In this document: positions 29,947 through 49,265 of the stretch, piece after piece
How positions within the stretch are numbered: the first letter of the stretch is position 1
Layout: each line of letters begins with the position of its first letter
Sequence record: OR167180
Direction: 5' to 3' (one strand)
Length of the DNA stretch: 64,000 nt
Source: Escherichia phage MIZ4
Notes under the pieces: model-generated
The model's input: the letters and a program-made list of their open reading frames with translations, nothing else
The model's database searches: none
What the model was told of the DNA's origin: nothing
Made by a program: the position numbers and the translations under genes

Positions 29947-30345
29947 TTAAGCCAGTCGAGTGAGTTTATAAATTGTTTTAAAGCATAGAGCTTTGATATC
30001 GTCTAAAACGCTCTGTAACGAGCTATCAACATCATTATAAATCTCACTAGCCATTTGCGTTAACTCTTGCAAATAGGCAATTTCGCTAATCTCCTTGCGG
30101 ACGACCAACTTTGGCTGATAACGACCAGTGATCCCAATATTGGTTTCAGTGAAATTATCAACCAATTCTTGCATTTCAAGATAGAACTCTTCTAGAGCCT
30201 TATGTTTTGCATAAGATCCAGGACCAGTTACCCCAAAATGCGCAGAATGCATATAAGTAACACTCATCAGACATTCACCGATAAAGCGGTCAACTTTATT
30301 AGCCTTTCCCTCTTCGGACGTCTTTAGAAAATCACTGAATTTCAT
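29947..30345 (-). CDS. hypothetical protein
   Basis: 132-aa ORF. Confidence 0.35.
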   Translation of the reverse strand: MKFSDFLKTSEEGKANKVDRFIGECLMSVTYMHSAHFGVTGPGSYAKHKALEEFYLEMQELVDNFTETNIGITGRYQPKLVVRKEISEIAYLQELTQMASEIYNDVDSSLQSVLDDIKALCFKTIYKLTRLA

Positions 30346-30634
30346 GTTCTCGATTCTCCATATTATTCAACAGAACAAATTGTTGTGCGGCATATCCCCC
30401 CATAATAAAACACTGCCTAGAATCCATACATTTACTACGAGCATACATCTTCATAATATGGGCATGAAATTTCTGGCTGGTTTCAATGGAAGGAGATATT
30501 TTGTTTACATATACTATCATTGCGCCGTCGAAATAATCAGTAAAGTCACCAGTTGGATCATATTGATCAGCACTGACACTTCCGACCGCAGTCAAGCATA
30601 TTGCCGCTGTTAGAGTTTTACGAATAAATGACAT
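30332..30634 (-). CDS. hypothetical secreted protein
   Basis: N-terminal signal-peptide-like MSFIRKTLTAAICLTAVGSVSA. Confidence 0.35.
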   Translation of the reverse strand: MSFIRKTLTAAICLTAVGSVSADQYDPTGDFTDYFDGAMIVYVNKISPSIETSQKFHAHIMKMYARSKCMDSRQCFIMGGYAAQQFVLLNNMENREHEIQ

Positions 30635-31827: not shown

Positions 31828-32030
31828 TTACATTTAGGGCAATGCGGTTCTTTAATATAATACCCGTCTGTCTTTGGAACACTAACAGGAGCGGTTTTTA
31901 TATTGTATTCAGTGAAACAACGAAAACAAGTTACGTTTTCTACAGACTGACGTTTCACCCAATCACCGGAATATAGATCATTTTTATTTGTCATATTCAA
32001 CCACCACAATGTTAATGTCTGGAGTAGCAA
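31800..32030 (-). CDS. hypothetical protein
   Basis: 76-aa ORF. Confidence 0.3.
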   Translation of the reverse strand: MLLQTLTLWWLNMTNKNDLYSGDWVKRQSVENVTCFRCFTEYNIKTAPVSVPKTDGYYIKEPHCPKCKCRLYWSHL

Positions 32031-32439
32031 TATTAATGATCTCTTCTACACATTCCCACTCAAGGCCACCGATACCGCAACCGATTTTAGGAATATAGAA
32101 AGGCTGTATAGCACCTTCAAAAACATCATTGATAGTCTCAAATCCTTTCAGGATAGCACCATATTCAGCATTTGGACCCGGTCGGAATTGGGTATATAGA
32201 TTCACCCCGCACCAGTTATAACCATTAACTTGATGCGTCCAGACACTAAACCAACCCAGCTTTTCTACCTTACCGCGAGAAGTTTGCTTGTCAATCTCTA
32301 ACGTTTGCGGGAACTCTTTCGCGATCTTTGCAGCAATACCAGCGCCCATAGTATGAAAACAATTACAACCATGAATTAAATGACCGTTTCCTTGTTTAAA
32401 CAGGGCGATGAGATCGCCCTTTACAGTATCAATAATCAT
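31984..32439 (-). CDS. macro-domain protein (ADP-ribose binding/hydrolase fold)
   Basis: HGCNCFHTMGAGIAAKI and a glycine-rich IGCGIGGL element typical of macro domains. Confidence 0.55.
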   Translation of the reverse strand: MIIDTVKGDLIALFKQGNGHLIHGCNCFHTMGAGIAAKIAKEFPQTLEIDKQTSRGKVEKLGWFSVWTHQVNGYNWCGVNLYTQFRPGPNAEYGAILKGFETINDVFEGAIQPFYIPKIGCGIGGLEWECVEEIINIATPDINIVVVEYDK

Positions 32440-32454
32440 AATATAAACCTCTCA

Positions 32455-32814
32455 TTAGTCACGGGAAGACAACCCAGCCATAAAACGGCTTAACAGTGTG
32501 TCGCGATAAGCAAAGCATAATTGCTTATCAGGGGCAGTATCACAAAGGTTGCGTTTTGTTTTAGCAAAGCTGGCAATACTCAGATCCCACGCTCGATTTT
32601 TTCGTTTTTCGTCTCGACCTTGTTTGTATGCTTCATCAAGTTCGAGCGCGATAAAATCACTACACATGTTATCATCATCACAGAAAGTTTTAATGATCTT
32701 TTTGTTGATCTCAAATCCTTTGTATTCAAACTTTGGATAAGGGCGCTCATTACTAGCAAGCGCACCAGCCGAGAACATCATAGCAATCATAGCAATTATT
32801 GTCAACTTTTTCAT
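32455..32814 (-). CDS. hypothetical periplasmic protein
   Basis: signal-peptide-like MKKLTIIAMIAMMFSAGALA plus several cysteines. Confidence 0.4.
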   Translation of the reverse strand: MKKLTIIAMIAMMFSAGALASNERPYPKFEYKGFEINKKIIKTFCDDDNMCSDFIALELDEAYKQGRDEKRKNRAWDLSIASFAKTKRNLCDTAPDKQLCFAYRDTLLSRFMAGLSSRD

Positions 32815-32821
32815 ATATTCC

Positions 32822-33412
32822 TCAATAGCGTTTAGTCTTAAGAATGCCTTTACTCTTTAGATGGTTAGCCTTTTTTAGTACGTCATCAGCATAACCTAAT
32901 CCGGCTTTATAGTTCCATCCAGCATTGTAAGAAGCTAGCGCGAGTCGGATATTACCGTTTCGAACATCCAGCCAGTATGCTAACTCATCCATCGCGTAGA
33001 ATGCAGAAACCTCGCGATTCATGATAAAGTTGATAGTCTGGCGATCACTCATTTTAACACCGCGCTTTGCATTTTTCGCTTTCACCGTTTTAAGGTAATT
33101 TTGAAATAATCCATAAGCATGATGATTTTTCTTTGGTGCTAAGTTTGCACCCGCGCTTGATTCTTGCCATGCGATACCCGCCAGGATGTGACCTAAACCC
33201 TTTCCGTTATAGCGAATATTCGGATGGTACTTTTTCAACTTACCGCTTTTCTCGAATTGCTCGCCGTATTGATAGGCGAAATGTAAATTATCTAGTTGGT
33301 GTGCTGTAAAGTTGTCTATCGGCGCTTTTTTGATCGGTGCGCTAGTCGATGCGTGTGTAGCACCAACGGCTAGTGACAGACTCAATACTATCGCTTTTAG
33401 AACTTTTAACAT
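32822..33412 (-). CDS. secreted lytic transglycosylase-like protein (SLT domain)
   Basis: signal peptide; SLT family motifs AWQESS, GLFQ, SYNAGWN. Confidence 0.55.
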   Translation of the reverse strand: MLKVLKAIVLSLSLAVGATHASTSAPIKKAPIDNFTAHQLDNLHFAYQYGEQFEKSGKLKKYHPNIRYNGKGLGHILAGIAWQESSAGANLAPKKNHHAYGLFQNYLKTVKAKNAKRGVKMSDRQTINFIMNREVSAFYAMDELAYWLDVRNGNIRLALASYNAGWNYKAGLGYADDVLKKANHLKSKGILKTKRY

Positions 33413-33497
33413 TAATTTCTCCTGTTTGGCTTAACTTTCTGATTCCATAATATAGCCCTATCACCAGAAAGTCAAGCATTATTTTAACCAATTTCCA

Positions 33498-33920
33498 TTA
33501 TTGGTCTACCTTCAAAACAACCGCCGACATTTTACCCGCCAGTCGTTTTGGATTCTCTATAATCATTCGGCAGCATAGACCGTGATATGGCTTACCCTCT
33601 TCGATTAGATCTACTGTCATCCCGATCCACATGTTACCGTCAGTAATTTCTAATCGATTCGGTCGGTCTTCCATTTTCAGGAAGTCGAAGATCTCCGGCA
33701 AACGAGTTTCTATCTTATTGAATAGTTCCATTGTCTTATGTTCATCGATATGACGATCGGTTAGACGGTCGATCATATGCGGACTAAATCGAATGAAAAT
33801 ATACTCACCGTAACCATCATTCAAGCACTTTTCTTTGATCTGCGCATTGGTTTTGCGCATTTCGGTTTCGAAGAATCTACGCAGCTTACTACGGCGAACA
33901 TGTACGTTAATTGTTTCCAT
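33498..33920 (-). CDS. regB: endoribonuclease RegB
   Basis: INVHVRRSKLRRFFE, RLEITDGNMWIGMTV, CRMIIENPKRLAGK match T4 RegB; start taken at METINV. Confidence 0.8.
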   Translation of the reverse strand: METINVHVRRSKLRRFFETEMRKTNAQIKEKCLNDGYGEYIFIRFSPHMIDRLTDRHIDEHKTMELFNKIETRLPEIFDFLKMEDRPNRLEITDGNMWIGMTVDLIEEGKPYHGLCCRMIIENPKRLAGKMSAVVLKVDQ

Positions 33921-33924
33921 TTTA

Positions 33925-34260
33925 TTATCCTTTCTTAAACAAATTGCGAAGCCAGTATACAAACGGGATTTCTTTAAACTTGAATTTCTCAATAGTTAAT
34001 TCTTTAGTAGCAAGATGAATACCATAAGCATCATGTGTAACTATATGCCATTTTCTATAGTCCAAATGTGAACAACCGTCTGGATCTAGGTTAATAAGAG
34101 TTTCTCGCTCACTAGGATTATTTTTCCACAATTTTGTAATAGGATCGCACATAATTCGACCTAGCGTACCATGAATAATCTCACAACGGTAAAGTTTTCC
34201 AGCAGTGAGATAGGCGCACCCGTCATAGTCGGTATAAACAAACACTTCTTTAACACTCAT
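33925..34260 (-). CDS. small paralog family C member
   Basis: DGCSHLDYRKW motif; start at the cassette RBS (MSVKEVF). Confidence 0.35.
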   Translation of the reverse strand: MSVKEVFVYTDYDGCAYLTAGKLYRCEIIHGTLGRIMCDPITKLWKNNPSERETLINLDPDGCSHLDYRKWHIVTHDAYGIHLATKELTIEKFKFKEIPFVYWLRNLFKKG

Positions 34261-37234: not shown

Positions 37235-37624
37235 TTATTTTGGATCTGGGTATTTGCTGTGTGGTAGCTGAAAATGAACACCGTCTTTAAAACTAGTCCA
37301 ATCCCCACCCCATTCAACAGGAACACCCAATTCTCGACCAGCTTGTTTAAATGCATCCGCGATCATGCGGTAGTATTTCATGTTCCATGTATCCTTATCT
37401 TTCGGATACGCTACAACGTCAACCGCGAAACCGTGAAGATGACGAGATTTCATAGTCTTAGATTTACCTTCCGCAACATATTTCTTTTGCGTTTCTAGAC
37501 TACGTACACCTTCCGTAATACCAAAATCGACCGGAGTCAGTTCTAACGCACGATGAACGACTTTTACCAGGTCAGGATGCACACCAACAAGCCGATCTTT
37601 GCTTCTTTGAGATAATTTAAACAT
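37235..37624 (-). CDS. endolysin, peptidase M15 family
   Basis: zinc-ligand motifs SRHLHGFAVDV and DGVHFQL; occupies the position of T4 e. Confidence 0.7.
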   Translation of the reverse strand: MFKLSQRSKDRLVGVHPDLVKVVHRALELTPVDFGITEGVRSLETQKKYVAEGKSKTMKSRHLHGFAVDVVAYPKDKDTWNMKYYRMIADAFKQAGRELGVPVEWGGDWTSFKDGVHFQLPHSKYPDPK

Positions 37625-41204: not shown

Positions 41205-41423
41205 TTATTTATATCGCTTTCTCTCGCGACGTTTTTGATCTTCTTCCTTGATAGAGTTAAATGCATCAAAAAGACACATGACACTAATAATAAACATAAC
41301 CGTATTTTCTACGATATCCCACGGCTTCGCATCAGTACAGATCCCCCAAACGGTAAGAAATGCAAATAGTGCAGAAGAGATCACAAGCATGATACTTGCT
41401 AAGATATAAAAAGTCATTTTCAT
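41205..41423 (-). CDS. small membrane protein
   Basis: 72 aa, hydrophobic N-terminus, basic C-terminus. Confidence 0.3.
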   Translation of the reverse strand: MKMTFYILASIMLVISSALFAFLTVWGICTDAKPWDIVENTVMFIISVMCLFDAFNSIKEEDQKRRERKRYK

Positions 41424-47465: not shown

Positions 47466-49265
47466 ATGCTAATGTTTAATAACTCCGTTAAATGGTTTAC
47501 CGGAATTGTAGAAAACAGGGAAGACCCATTAATGCTGGGGCGTGTTCAGGTTAGGATTCATGGTATACATCCCTCGCTATCCGCACACGGTGACATTCAA
47601 GGTCTTCCAACCGAAGATCTATTATGGATTACGCCAGTACAAGATATTACAAGCGCGGCGATCTCCGGTATAGGTCAAAGCCCTACTGGTATTGTTGAAG
47701 GTTCAATGGTATTTGGTTTGGCTTTAGATGAACGTTATTTAAACTGCGTTATTCTTGGTACTATTGCCGGACAATATACAGAGAAACCACTTACTACAGA
47801 GGGTTTTTGCGACCCTTCTGGTGCATATCCTCGTTATATTGGTAATGATGTTAATATTCTTGCTCGTGGCGGTATTAACCCAGAAACCGGACAAACAACA
47901 AAACCTGATAGTGTCTATATTCGAGATGAAAACACTGGAGTTGCAGTAAATCCAGACGACGAGCCATTAGACCAAATTCCGGTTGATGATAATCCTGATT
48001 TTACAATCGAAAAAATGCTGCGGGGCGATGAGGGATATCGCGAGAAATGGTATCTTGATTCAGAAGGATATCCGACAATAGGCATCGGGCATTTGATCAT
48101 TTATAAGAAAACCAGTGATCTGGGTATTATCAATAATGAACTTTCTAAGCTGGTAGGGCGTGAAGTTACAAACGGAAGACTTACCGCCGAAGAAGTTAGT
48201 AAAGTATTTGCTGACGATATAGAAAAGACTCGTCGTGATATGCGCAAACATCCACGAATTGCACCTGTCTATAATAAATGTAATGCCTCACGTCGTATGG
48301 CATTAGAAAATATGGCGTTTCAAATGGGTGTTGGAGGATTGGGTAAATTTAAGAATAGTCTTGCTGCGATGTTAGCGGAAGAATGGAAACAAGCCTATGA
48401 TGGATTACGTCAATCGGTATGGGCTAACCAAACTCCAGGACGCTCCAGCCGTGTTTCTAAAATTATTTTAACTGGTAACTTAGAATCATATGGCGTAATT
48501 GCTCCAAAGAAAGAGGAATCAATTTCGGATGATCCGCGAGCACGTTTGAGAAATGCCCGTATTGCTGCCTATAAGACGCAGAGAGCAGAAGAAGACCCAG
48601 AAGCACCGTTTACCCCACAAGACACACGAATCATGTTTAAAGAGCCTAAGAGTTCGTATTCTGCGAGGTATCCTTATAACCATGTGTACGAGTCAGAGAG
48701 CGGTCATATTATCGAGATTGATGATACTCCTTCTCATGAGCGATATCATCGTAAACATCCTTCTGGTACATTTGAAGAAACCAGACCGGACGGAACGAGG
48801 GTAGAAAAGATTGAAGGTGATGACTATTTGATCGTTAAGCAAGGCCGCAAAGTCAACGTTAAAGGCAATCTGCAAGTTGTTGTTGAAGGTGACGCGCAAG
48901 TTTATTATATGGGTAATGTAATGCAAACCGTTGATGGTAACGTCACGGAATTTATTCGTGGCAATGTTAATCAGACCGTTGAGGGTACAGCTAATATGCA
49001 TGTTGTAGGTGATGTTACCGCACAGCTTGACGCTAATTTGACGGCTAACGTCAAGGGTAATGCTGAATTAATGATCGAGGGTAACACTACCGAAACAATT
49101 AAAGGTAACTATGATTTAACCGTTGAGGGTAATTTTAATATGACCGTCAATGGCACTAAATCAGATCAGGTTAATGGTGACTGGTCCCGTAATTGTGGTG
49201 CAAGCGTTAAAGATATTGCATCTGGTACAGTTAAAATTGATGGTAGCCGTATTGATCTTGGGTGA
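47466..49265 (+). CDS. 5: baseplate hub / tail lysozyme gp5
   Basis: N-terminal OB region, T4-lysozyme-like EGYREKWYLDSEGYPTIGIGH, C-terminal beta-helix with VxGN repeats. Confidence 0.9.
   Translation: MLMFNNSVKWFTGIVENREDPLMLGRVQVRIHGIHPSLSAHGDIQGLPTEDLLWITPVQDITSAAISGIGQSPTGIVEGSMVFGLALDERYLNCVILGTIAGQYTEKPLTTEGFCDPSGAYPRYIGNDVNILARGGINPETGQTTKPDSVYIRDENTGVAVNPDDEPLDQIPVDDNPDFTIEKMLRGDEGYREKWYLDSEGYPTIGIGHLIIYKKTSDLGIINNELSKLVGREVTNGRLTAEEVSKVFADDIEKTRRDMRKHPRIAPVYNKCNASRRMALENMAFQMGVGGLGKFKNSLAAMLAEEWKQAYDGLRQSVWANQTPGRSSRVSKIILTGNLESYGVIAPKKEESISDDPRARLRNARIAAYKTQRAEEDPEAPFTPQDTRIMFKEPKSSYSARYPYNHVYESESGHIIEIDDTPSHERYHRKHPSGTFEETRPDGTRVEKIEGDDYLIVKQGRKVNVKGNLQVVVEGDAQVYYMGNVMQTVDGNVTEFIRGNVNQTVEGTANMHVVGDVTAQLDANLTANVKGNAELMIEGNTTETIKGNYDLTVEGNFNMTVNGTKSDQVNGDWSRNCGASVKDIASGTVKIDGSRIDLG

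Follow-up and report, generated by a model that had tools for sequence, protein, structure and literature searches.

A stretch of 64,000 nucleotides from Escherichia phage MIZ4 (sequence record OR167180), referred to below in its full length as the window, carries two adjacent open reading frames (ORFs) on the minus strand, at 32822-33412 and 32455-32814, which correspond, in Krischvirus, to vs.1 and vs of T4. By gene identity, fold and motifs the Vs.1 protein is an SLT-type (GH23, family 1) lytic-transglycosylase-like protein, and vs.1 and vs form a tight, translationally coupled cassette. The reading that we favour, and hold to be somewhat better than an even bet, is that this cassette would send an accessory lytic transglycosylase and its partner or regulator, Vs, to the periplasm for remodelling of the sacculus ahead of lysis.

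The source phage is a Krischvirus, an RB49/JSE-like T4-type coliphage; over the stretch 31900-34100 it showed 100% identity with Escherichia phage MIZ5, and 57 further records reached 95% or more. As judged from the ORFs of the window, Pfam matches and annotations, the order regB - vs.1 - vs - tk.4 is common to the window, JSE, MIZ5 and T4. In JSE, regB lies upstream of vs.1 and tk.4 downstream of vs, with tk and rI further along, and the two genes are annotated as 'conserved hypothetical protein' (vs.1) and 'valyl-tRNA synthetase modifier' (vs). T4 Vs.1 (NP_049725; phrog_600) is an orthologue of the window protein, with 52% identity over 158 amino acids, and agrees with it in length class, signal peptide, motifs and gene position. 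The gene junctions differ in that T4 vs.1 directly adjoins regB and shares 8 nt with vs, whereas in the window an 85-nt spacer with a promoter-like site precedes vs.1 and a 7-nt gap follows it. T4 Vs (NP_049724; PF26829; phrog_1256) shares with the window Vs its profile family, type of signal peptide, four cysteines and place after vs.1, but the two are only about 29% identical and were not linked by tblastn, and the function in the name is established, if at all, for T4 alone.

Homologues of Vs.1 were retrieved by tblastn from 2033 phage records and those of Vs from 303. Vs.1 occurs in T4-like phages of Escherichia, Klebsiella, Salmonella, Aeromonas and Acinetobacter, in Vi01-like Ackermannviridae and in FelixO1-like phages (Felixounavirus), a spread that covers Straboviridae, Ackermannviridae and Felixounavirus, and a few of the GenBank records name it 'transglycosylase SLT domain-containing protein' or 'putative lysin'. 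The vs.1/vs pair is thus already known and its SLT prediction is some 20 years old. Miller, in 2003, reportedly noted the SLT similarity of T4 Vs.1. A conserved, marginal SLT match of vs.1 was reported in six T4-like genomes by Nolan et al. (2006, PMC1524935), who cite earlier PSI-BLAST results for T4. A previous reading of the window from its letters alone (the sequence-only reading) had called such an enzyme unusual, a judgement that does not survive the identification of the gene as T4 vs.1, the published SLT similarity and the occurrence of homologues in some 2,000 phage records.

The classification of Vs.1 draws on profile, motif and fold comparisons. The window protein matched the Pfam SLT family (PF01464) with 25.8 bits (cut-off 21.3; E=8.1e-6) over residues 76-167; T4 Vs.1 scored 25.1 bits, and the Vi01-like and FelixO1-like copies came slightly under the cut-off. 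It matched phrog_600, a family of 'unknown function', over its full length (E=1e-59, residues 6-193 on profile positions 2-176 of 178). Its motifs are AWQESS at 81-86, GLFQ at 101-104 (GLFQN at 101-105) and SYNAGWN at 161-167 (SYNAG at 161-165), where motif II of family 1 was taken as G-L-M/F-Q and motif III as A/S-Y-N-x-G. The proposal of the sequence-only reading that the larger ORF is a signal-peptide-bearing SLT-type protein with these motifs is borne out by the agreement of Pfam, motifs and signal-peptide rule. When 21 homologues with 40-89% identity to the window protein were aligned, E84, S86, G101, F103, Q104, N105, S161, Y162, A164 and G165 proved invariant. The earlier proposal had been made to depend on a catalytic glutamate in the alignment, and E84 is the residue predicted to play this part. 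An AlphaFold model (predicted local distance difference test score, pLDDT, 83.5) places E84 at the C-terminal end of helix 74-85, and a Foldseek comparison of the model with the PDB gave GH23 proteins for all of the best 18 matches (lytic transglycosylases and one GH23 chitinase); EtgA was among the structural matches.

Four features of a family-1 lytic transglycosylase were found in Vs.1: a profile score above threshold, the Glu-Ser pair at a helix end, motifs II and III, and the GH23 fold. The stretch H-H-A-Y-G ahead of motif II is conserved and phage-specific. No conserved second acidic residue was present between E84 and G101 in the 21-homologue alignment, an absence that speaks for a transglycosylase and against a hydrolytic g-type lysozyme, although sequence alone cannot decide between the two. 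Compared with Slt70, MltC, MltD, MltE and MltF of E. coli, Vs.1 consists of the catalytic domain alone plus one further helix at its N-terminus, and lacks a lipobox as well as superhelical and LysM modules. The predicted mature protein has 175 amino acids, a mass of 19.8 kDa and an isoelectric point of 9.9, and since there is no lipobox it should be soluble in the periplasm. We consider it very probable that Vs.1 is an exported and active lytic transglycosylase. Small Sec-exported SLT enzymes open local gaps in the wall for envelope-spanning machines. EtgA of the type III secretion system encoded by the locus of enterocyte effacement is a small periplasmic lytic transglycosylase of a secretion machine, devoid of sequence-level similarity to Vs.1, and IpgF, IagB, VirB1 and P19 are further enzymes of this kind from secretion and conjugation machines. 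The lytic transglycosylases of such machines are tied to and activated by rod proteins, whereas Vs.1 has no known partner of that sort, unless it be Vs or the spanins.

Signal peptides were called by a simple rule for n-, h- and c-regions together with conservation across homologues. The rule demands a basic n-region, a hydrophobic h-region of 10-15 residues, small residues at -3 and -1, and no lipobox, and both ORFs pass it. Vs.1 begins with MLKVLKAIVLSLSLAVGATHA followed by STSAP, with lysines in the n-region, a hydrophobic core of 12-13 residues and a T-H-A cleavage-type site; the N-terminus of Vs is MKKLTIIAMIAMMFSAGALA followed by SNE, and that of T4 Vs is MTKILVLCIGLISFSASASA followed by DTS. 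Signal-peptide-like N-termini were present in 18 of the 21 Vs.1 homologues and 44 of the 45 Vs homologues, the type being kept while the sequence varies. The T4, Vi01 and FelixO1-like copies of Vs.1 have such a start, as does T4 Vs, and the Vi01 and FelixO1-like copies of Vs.1 retain the motifs as well. The background of the heuristic in the window was 6 passes among 100 long ORFs, namely Vs.1, Vs, rI, a small membrane protein ORF and two further ORFs, both probably spurious. From these N-termini we infer Sec export of both Vs.1 and Vs.

The ORF of Vs matched phrog_1256 over its full length (E=1.8e-33), and the Pfam family PF26829 ('ValRS_modifier') is a precomputed assignment on P0024, a protein 97% identical to the window Vs, as well as on all 49 profile hits. 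Across an alignment of 45 family members, 18-83% identical to the window protein, the invariant positions were Met1, Gly66, Gly114 and the four cysteines of the window protein, Cys45, Cys51, Cys91 and Cys100. The exported appearance and the cysteines that the sequence-only reading had attributed to this second ORF, though it did not identify the ORF as vs, are traits of the aligned family (44 of 45 signal-peptide starts, four invariant cysteines). In an AlphaFold2 model (pLDDT 76.9) the protein folds into four helices (28-45, 49-72, 76-86 and 97-115), with one cysteine pair at the turn between helices 1 and 2 and the other ahead of helix 4, a modelled placement that suits two local disulfides. 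Predicted mature Vs has 99 amino acids, a mass of 11.6 kDa and an isoelectric point of 8.3; the predicted mature T4 protein is 11.0 kDa. The purified factor that binds valyl-tRNA synthetase (ValRS) is reportedly about 10 kDa in size, which would fit a processed protein.

Sequence and structure comparisons with known families and folds found no resemblance for Vs, and there was no sequence or fold similarity to the inhibitor families Ivy, MliC/PliC, PliG and LprI/DUF1311. A profile search of 1.84 billion representative proteins for remote relatives gave only 28 matches, nearly all of about 80-135 amino acids, and the Vs family is thus very small and closed. When T4 Vs was made at full length in the cytoplasm of E. 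coli with a His tag at its N-terminus, it was insoluble (PMC8076793), a result that fits a secretory precursor, if only weakly. The signal peptide and the two cysteine pairs argue for a periplasmic protein, and the signal peptide is in conflict with the name 'valyl-tRNA synthetase modifier'. Within the searchable literature, which leaves the older primary papers and the T4 genome review outside, no discussion was found of this disagreement between a periplasmic-looking Vs and its ValRS-binding name.

The linkage of the two genes was followed in both directions. In the window the Shine-Dalgarno sequence of vs overlaps the stop codon of vs.1. Sixty-nine IMG/VR loci had a Vs.1 homologue, and 38 of them contained vs. 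In every case (38/38) it came directly after vs.1 in the same orientation, the distance between the genes ranging from -8 to +7 nt. Conversely, six places were fetched by exact-protein look-up of four divergent Vs proteins, and in all six the gene ending at the vs start encoded a member of the Vs.1 family (E 1e-80 to 9e-49). The pair persists where regB or tk.4 is absent, as in Acj61 and KARL-1. That vs was always found behind vs.1, and vs.1 often without vs, is the pattern expected of an enzyme with an optional accessory partner, and the many phages with Vs.1 but no vs indicate that Vs is not needed for the enzyme as such. The chance that Vs does work together with Vs.1 appears to us evenly balanced.

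The window encodes a separate lysis enzyme. The endolysin is a 129-residue Peptidase_M15_4 protein of the L-Ala-D-Glu peptidase type (37235-37624, minus strand), of the same family as EndoRB49, the characterised L-alanoyl-D-glutamate peptidase of RB49 (PMC8140593, PMC10487532). The baseplate hub and tail lysozyme gp5 (47466-49265, plus strand) has Gp5_OB, Phage_lysozyme and Gp5_C domains. The sequence-only reading was thus right to set Vs.1 apart from both. A tblastn match of T4 lysozyme E at 48006-48491, the sole such match in the window, was rejected as an e gene, as it is the lysozyme domain of gp5. Apart from the virion protein gp5, Vs.1 was the only product of a glycan-cleaving enzyme gene identified in the examined part of the window. 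The endolysin of T4 is lysozyme E and that of the window phage an M15 peptidase, and the retention of Vs.1 beside endolysins of different chemistry indicates a role other than the final destruction of the wall.

The sequence-only reading had proposed that Vs.1 could act in lysis timing, superinfection exclusion or cell-wall remodelling. The only functional data found are T4 transposon data from the HIDEN-SEQ preprint. Transposon insertions hit 4 of 45 TA sites in e ('essential'), 46 of 52 in vs.1 and 30 of 32 in vs (both 'non-essential'). As vs.1 is dispensable and e essential in T4, Vs.1 is an accessory enzyme and not the lysin. Mean insertion reads in the same source were about 10-fold lower in vs (26.6) and vs.1 (22.6) than in regB (179), tk.4 (290) and vs.3 (652). 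In its comparison of LB with M9 glucose medium (HIDEN-SEQ Extended Data Table 6, sheet S8), vs was the most depleted T4 gene (log2 fold change -2.19, adjusted p 0), and vs.1 had a log2 fold change of -0.87 in M9 glucose (p 0.0055, adjusted p 0.155). The lower insertion counts in both genes and the drop in M9 fit a shared role.

The surroundings of vs.1 in other phages bring in the spanins. In Cronobacter phage S13 (NC_028773, L083:1501-2683) a Vs.1-family gene shares 4 nt with the start of the i-spanin gene, after which come the o-spanin gene and pseT, so that the Vs.1-like gene adjoins the spanin pair within the alc-pseT block. In an unclassified 166-kb viral contig from IMG/VR (L051:2929-3865) a Vs.1-like gene is followed after 1 nt by an Rz-like i-spanin gene, and in a FelixO1-like phage the Vs.1 gene is located three genes upstream of the spanin, with polynucleotide kinase and one hypothetical gene intervening. 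The S13 gene was also considered as the only lysin of that phage, and this was rejected because S13 has an e-type lysozyme and gp5.

On the favoured reading, the 196-residue precursor of Vs.1 would be exported by Sec early in infection and cleaved after about residue 21. The promoter-like site and the strong ribosome-binding site AGGAG ahead of vs.1, together with its early/middle gene surroundings, suggest that export would begin long before lysis. The soluble periplasmic enzyme would act as a family-1 lytic transglycosylase, in which Glu84 would protonate the glycosidic bond between N-acetylmuramic acid (MurNAc) and N-acetylglucosamine and then assist the attack of the C6 hydroxyl of MurNAc, leaving a 1,6-anhydroMurNAc end. 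The task of lysis endolysin falls not to Vs.1 but to the M15 peptidase here and to lysozyme E in T4. Vs.1 would instead condition the sacculus before lysis by cutting, shortening or loosening glycan strands, allowing later envelope events to run efficiently; candidates are the threading of spanin complexes through the wall and rapid collapse upon arrival of the endolysin. The effect may be greatest in slow-growing cells with tightly cross-linked walls. These specific roles in spanin threading or slow growth are tentative, and we rate each of them at less than an even chance. Translational coupling would make Vs in fixed proportion to Vs.1, as an exported four-helix protein of about 11 kDa, probably with two disulfide bonds, that may be the periplasmic partner or regulator of the enzyme.

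Several observations weigh against this proposal. The Pfam SLT score of Vs.1 exceeds the threshold only marginally, and single-sequence and profile searches of PDB chains gave zero true matches, so that the family assignment leans on fold and motifs. A search of the accessible literature found no enzymatic, localisation or interaction data on Vs.1 of any phage, nor experimental data on the processing or periplasmic placement of Vs.1 or Vs. The promoter ahead of vs.1 is a consensus match only, and sigma-70-type sites were not enriched in the whole region (10 seen against 7.3 expected). The effect of M9 on vs.1 is not significant once corrected, and the low insertion counts of vs.1 could reflect polarity on vs or a local insertion bias. 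Vs.1 occurs without vs in Aeromonas T4-like, Vi01-like, FelixO1-like and S13-like phages. Vs, moreover, is described as a binder of the cytoplasmic ValRS (Muller & Marchin, as relayed in PMC8076793); if this is correct, Vs would not share a compartment with the enzyme whose partner it is proposed to be.

That last point is the core of a different account, in which Vs binds host ValRS in the cytoplasm, its place next to vs.1 is merely inherited gene order and its hydrophobic N-terminus is not used for export. T4 vs mutants alter growth on valS(ts) hosts. According to the classical work, to the extent that PMC8076793 relays it, the T4 factor binds ValRS and alters its properties; the depletion of T4 vs in minimal medium would suit a role in translation or amino-acid supply, and many lineages have Vs.1 and no Vs. 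The canonical signal peptide is nevertheless kept in 44 of 45 family members despite sequence drift, all 45 have the two cysteine pairs typical of periplasmic disulfides, vs was never found away from vs.1 and has its start signals embedded in the vs.1 stop, and a literature search did not find primary evidence that ties the ValRS-binding factor to the vs ORF. We regard a cytoplasmic Vs as a serious possibility, though not the likely one. Slightly less probable still, in our estimate, is the opposite position, that vs.1 and vs make up a two-protein periplasmic module in which Vs, a dedicated exported and disulfide-bonded partner, tunes or restrains the lytic transglycosylase, the association with ValRS is secondary or arises after cell breakage, and the M9 defect of vs reflects the state of the wall in slow-growing hosts, not translation. 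Vs.1 might also be a Sec-delivered 'SP-endolysin', exported in advance, held inactive in the energised envelope and set free to degrade the wall once the holin collapses the membrane potential, as a second or back-up lysin. Its architecture of a signal peptide and an SLT domain in about 190 residues matches that of the Campylobacter Fletchervirus F352 endolysin, which requires Sec and is activated by holin in E. coli, and in Firehammervirus, lysis through the SLT endolysin is slowed by a small overlapping gene, so that a minor partner gene of the kind of vs would have a precedent (PMC7692668). The likeness to the Fletchervirus enzyme (F352_101; NCTC12673 gp11) extends to its 188 residues, a similar Pfam SLT score, a T4-like-gene-rich phage and, by experiment, Sec dependence (PMC7692668), but that protein is the lysis endolysin of its phage, whereas a separate endolysin is present alongside Vs.1, which T4 can do without. 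Homology between the two was rejected, as a Vs.1 hidden Markov model and BLASTP gave no match in the whole NCTC12673 genome and only the Pfam family is shared. The Vs.1-family genes immediately ahead of spanin genes in S13 and the IMG/VR contig and the 'putative lysin' annotation of FelixO1-like copies speak for a back-up lysin; the dedicated endolysin of this phage, the inability of Vs.1 to replace E in T4, the e-type lysozyme and gp5 that S13 carries in addition, and the position of vs.1 among early/middle genes, behind a sigma-70-type promoter candidate and not in a late or lysis cluster, render it improbable.

A service in phage-phage or phage-host conflict, whereby an early change of the wall would block the tails of superinfecting T-even phages or shift the muropeptide pool sensed by the host, has in its favour the early-looking expression and periplasmic-looking location, as for the T4 exclusion protein Spackle, an inhibitor of gp5 lysozyme (PMC7677548), and the neighbouring counter-defence gene tk.4, which encodes the anti-DarT macrodomain protein AdfM, as well as Acb2/Tad1-like genes near regB in related contigs. 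As sp had no effect in the T4 competition between LB and M9 (in that HIDEN-SEQ comparison only), vs.1 is kept by widely differing phage families whose tail lysozymes are not alike, and direct evidence for such a role is nil, we find it highly unlikely. Hardly credible is the notion that Vs.1 has lost its catalytic activity and survives as a transglycosylase remnant that binds peptidoglycan: the weak Pfam SLT match (25.8 bits) and the want of a sequence match to any solved lytic transglycosylase would allow for it, but Glu-Ser and both downstream motifs are invariant in the 21 homologues and recur in the Vi01-like and FelixO1-like copies.

The features of the cassette are collected in Table 1.

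Table 1. Position and basis of features in and around the vs.1-vs cassette of the window.
Feature	Position	Strand	Basis
Sigma-70-type (early-like) promoter candidate TTGACT-17-TATTAT in the 85-nt regB/vs.1 spacer	33447..33475	-	consensus scan, 10/12 matches
Shine-Dalgarno AGGAG, 6 nt ahead of the vs.1 ATG	33419..33423	-	sequence reading
vs.1 orthologue, 196-aa precursor, predicted periplasmic family-1 (SLT/GH23) lytic transglycosylase	32822..33412	-	
vs.1 codons 1-21, predicted Sec signal peptide (MLKVLKAIVLSLSLAVGATHA then S)	33350..33412	-	hydrophobicity, -3/-1 rule
Glu84 codon GAA, predicted catalytic acid/base (E-S motif)	33161..33163	-	alignment invariance, model helix end
vs.1 stop TGA (32824-32822) overlapping the vs Shine-Dalgarno GAGGA (32823-32819), translational-coupling junction	32819..32824	-	sequence reading
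vs orthologue (PF26829 ValRS_modifier/phrog_1256), 119-aa precursor, predicted exported four-helix protein with two Cys pairs	32455..32814	-	
vs codons 1-20, predicted Sec signal peptide (MKKLTIIAMIAMMFSAGALA then S)	32755..32814	-	n/h/c heuristic; conservation

Directly downstream of vs, at 31984-32439 on the minus strand, lies the tk.4 orthologue, which encodes a macrodomain protein (Pfam Macro, E=4.7e-6; NCBIfam DarG-like, E=9e-13). T4 tk.4 is named 'AdfM', for an anti-DarT2 factor, in the HIDEN-SEQ preprint. On the other side of the cassette, the program-derived ORF for regB (33498-33992, minus strand) has 164 codons from a TTG start, and MIZ5 and JSE annotate 140 amino acids (33498-33920). 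The Pfam REGB_T4 match sets in at residue 29 of the 164-codon frame, and the longer start is probably unused. As context for the minimal-medium phenotype of vs, T4 insertions in M9 relative to LB in the HIDEN-SEQ table were up for nrdA, nrdB and td, down for regA and up about 2-fold for regB. In two metagenomic T4-like contigs (L092:1-127 and L096:165-431) a gene with the Pfam domain Acb2_Tad1_hairpin, of the anti-CBASS/Thoeris sponge family, was found 1-2 genes upstream of regB.

The orthologue of the antiholin gene rI is located at 30332-30634 (minus strand; Pfam Antiholin, E=4.6e-23), and its product is another that satisfies the signal-peptide rule. Among Acinetobacter-type phages and in metagenomic contigs the gene stands only two genes downstream of vs.1-vs. 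This position and the signal-peptide-like start suggest that periplasm-directed genes are loosely clustered in the region. A 72-residue ORF at 41205-41423 (minus strand) has a strongly hydrophobic N-terminus (MKMTFYILASIMLVISSALFAFLTVWGICT) and resembles a small membrane protein.

The identification of the genes is in itself ordinary, as vs.1 is a T4 gene whose SLT similarity is already in the literature and in some GenBank annotations. Its significance is that Vs.1 is a third murein enzyme beside endolysin and tail lysozyme, kept in about 2,000 large virulent phages of several families regardless of the type of their endolysin, and that its fixed partner Vs bears a name contradicted by its own sequence and is encoded by the T4 gene that a recent transposon screen ranked first for conditional importance in minimal medium. 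If the two proteins did form a periplasmic module, a protein called 'valyl-tRNA synthetase modifier' for 50 years would be a periplasmic cell-wall factor. The role of vs.1 and vs could show how phages ready the walls of slow-growing cells for lysis, which bears on the efficacy of phages against non-growing bacteria.

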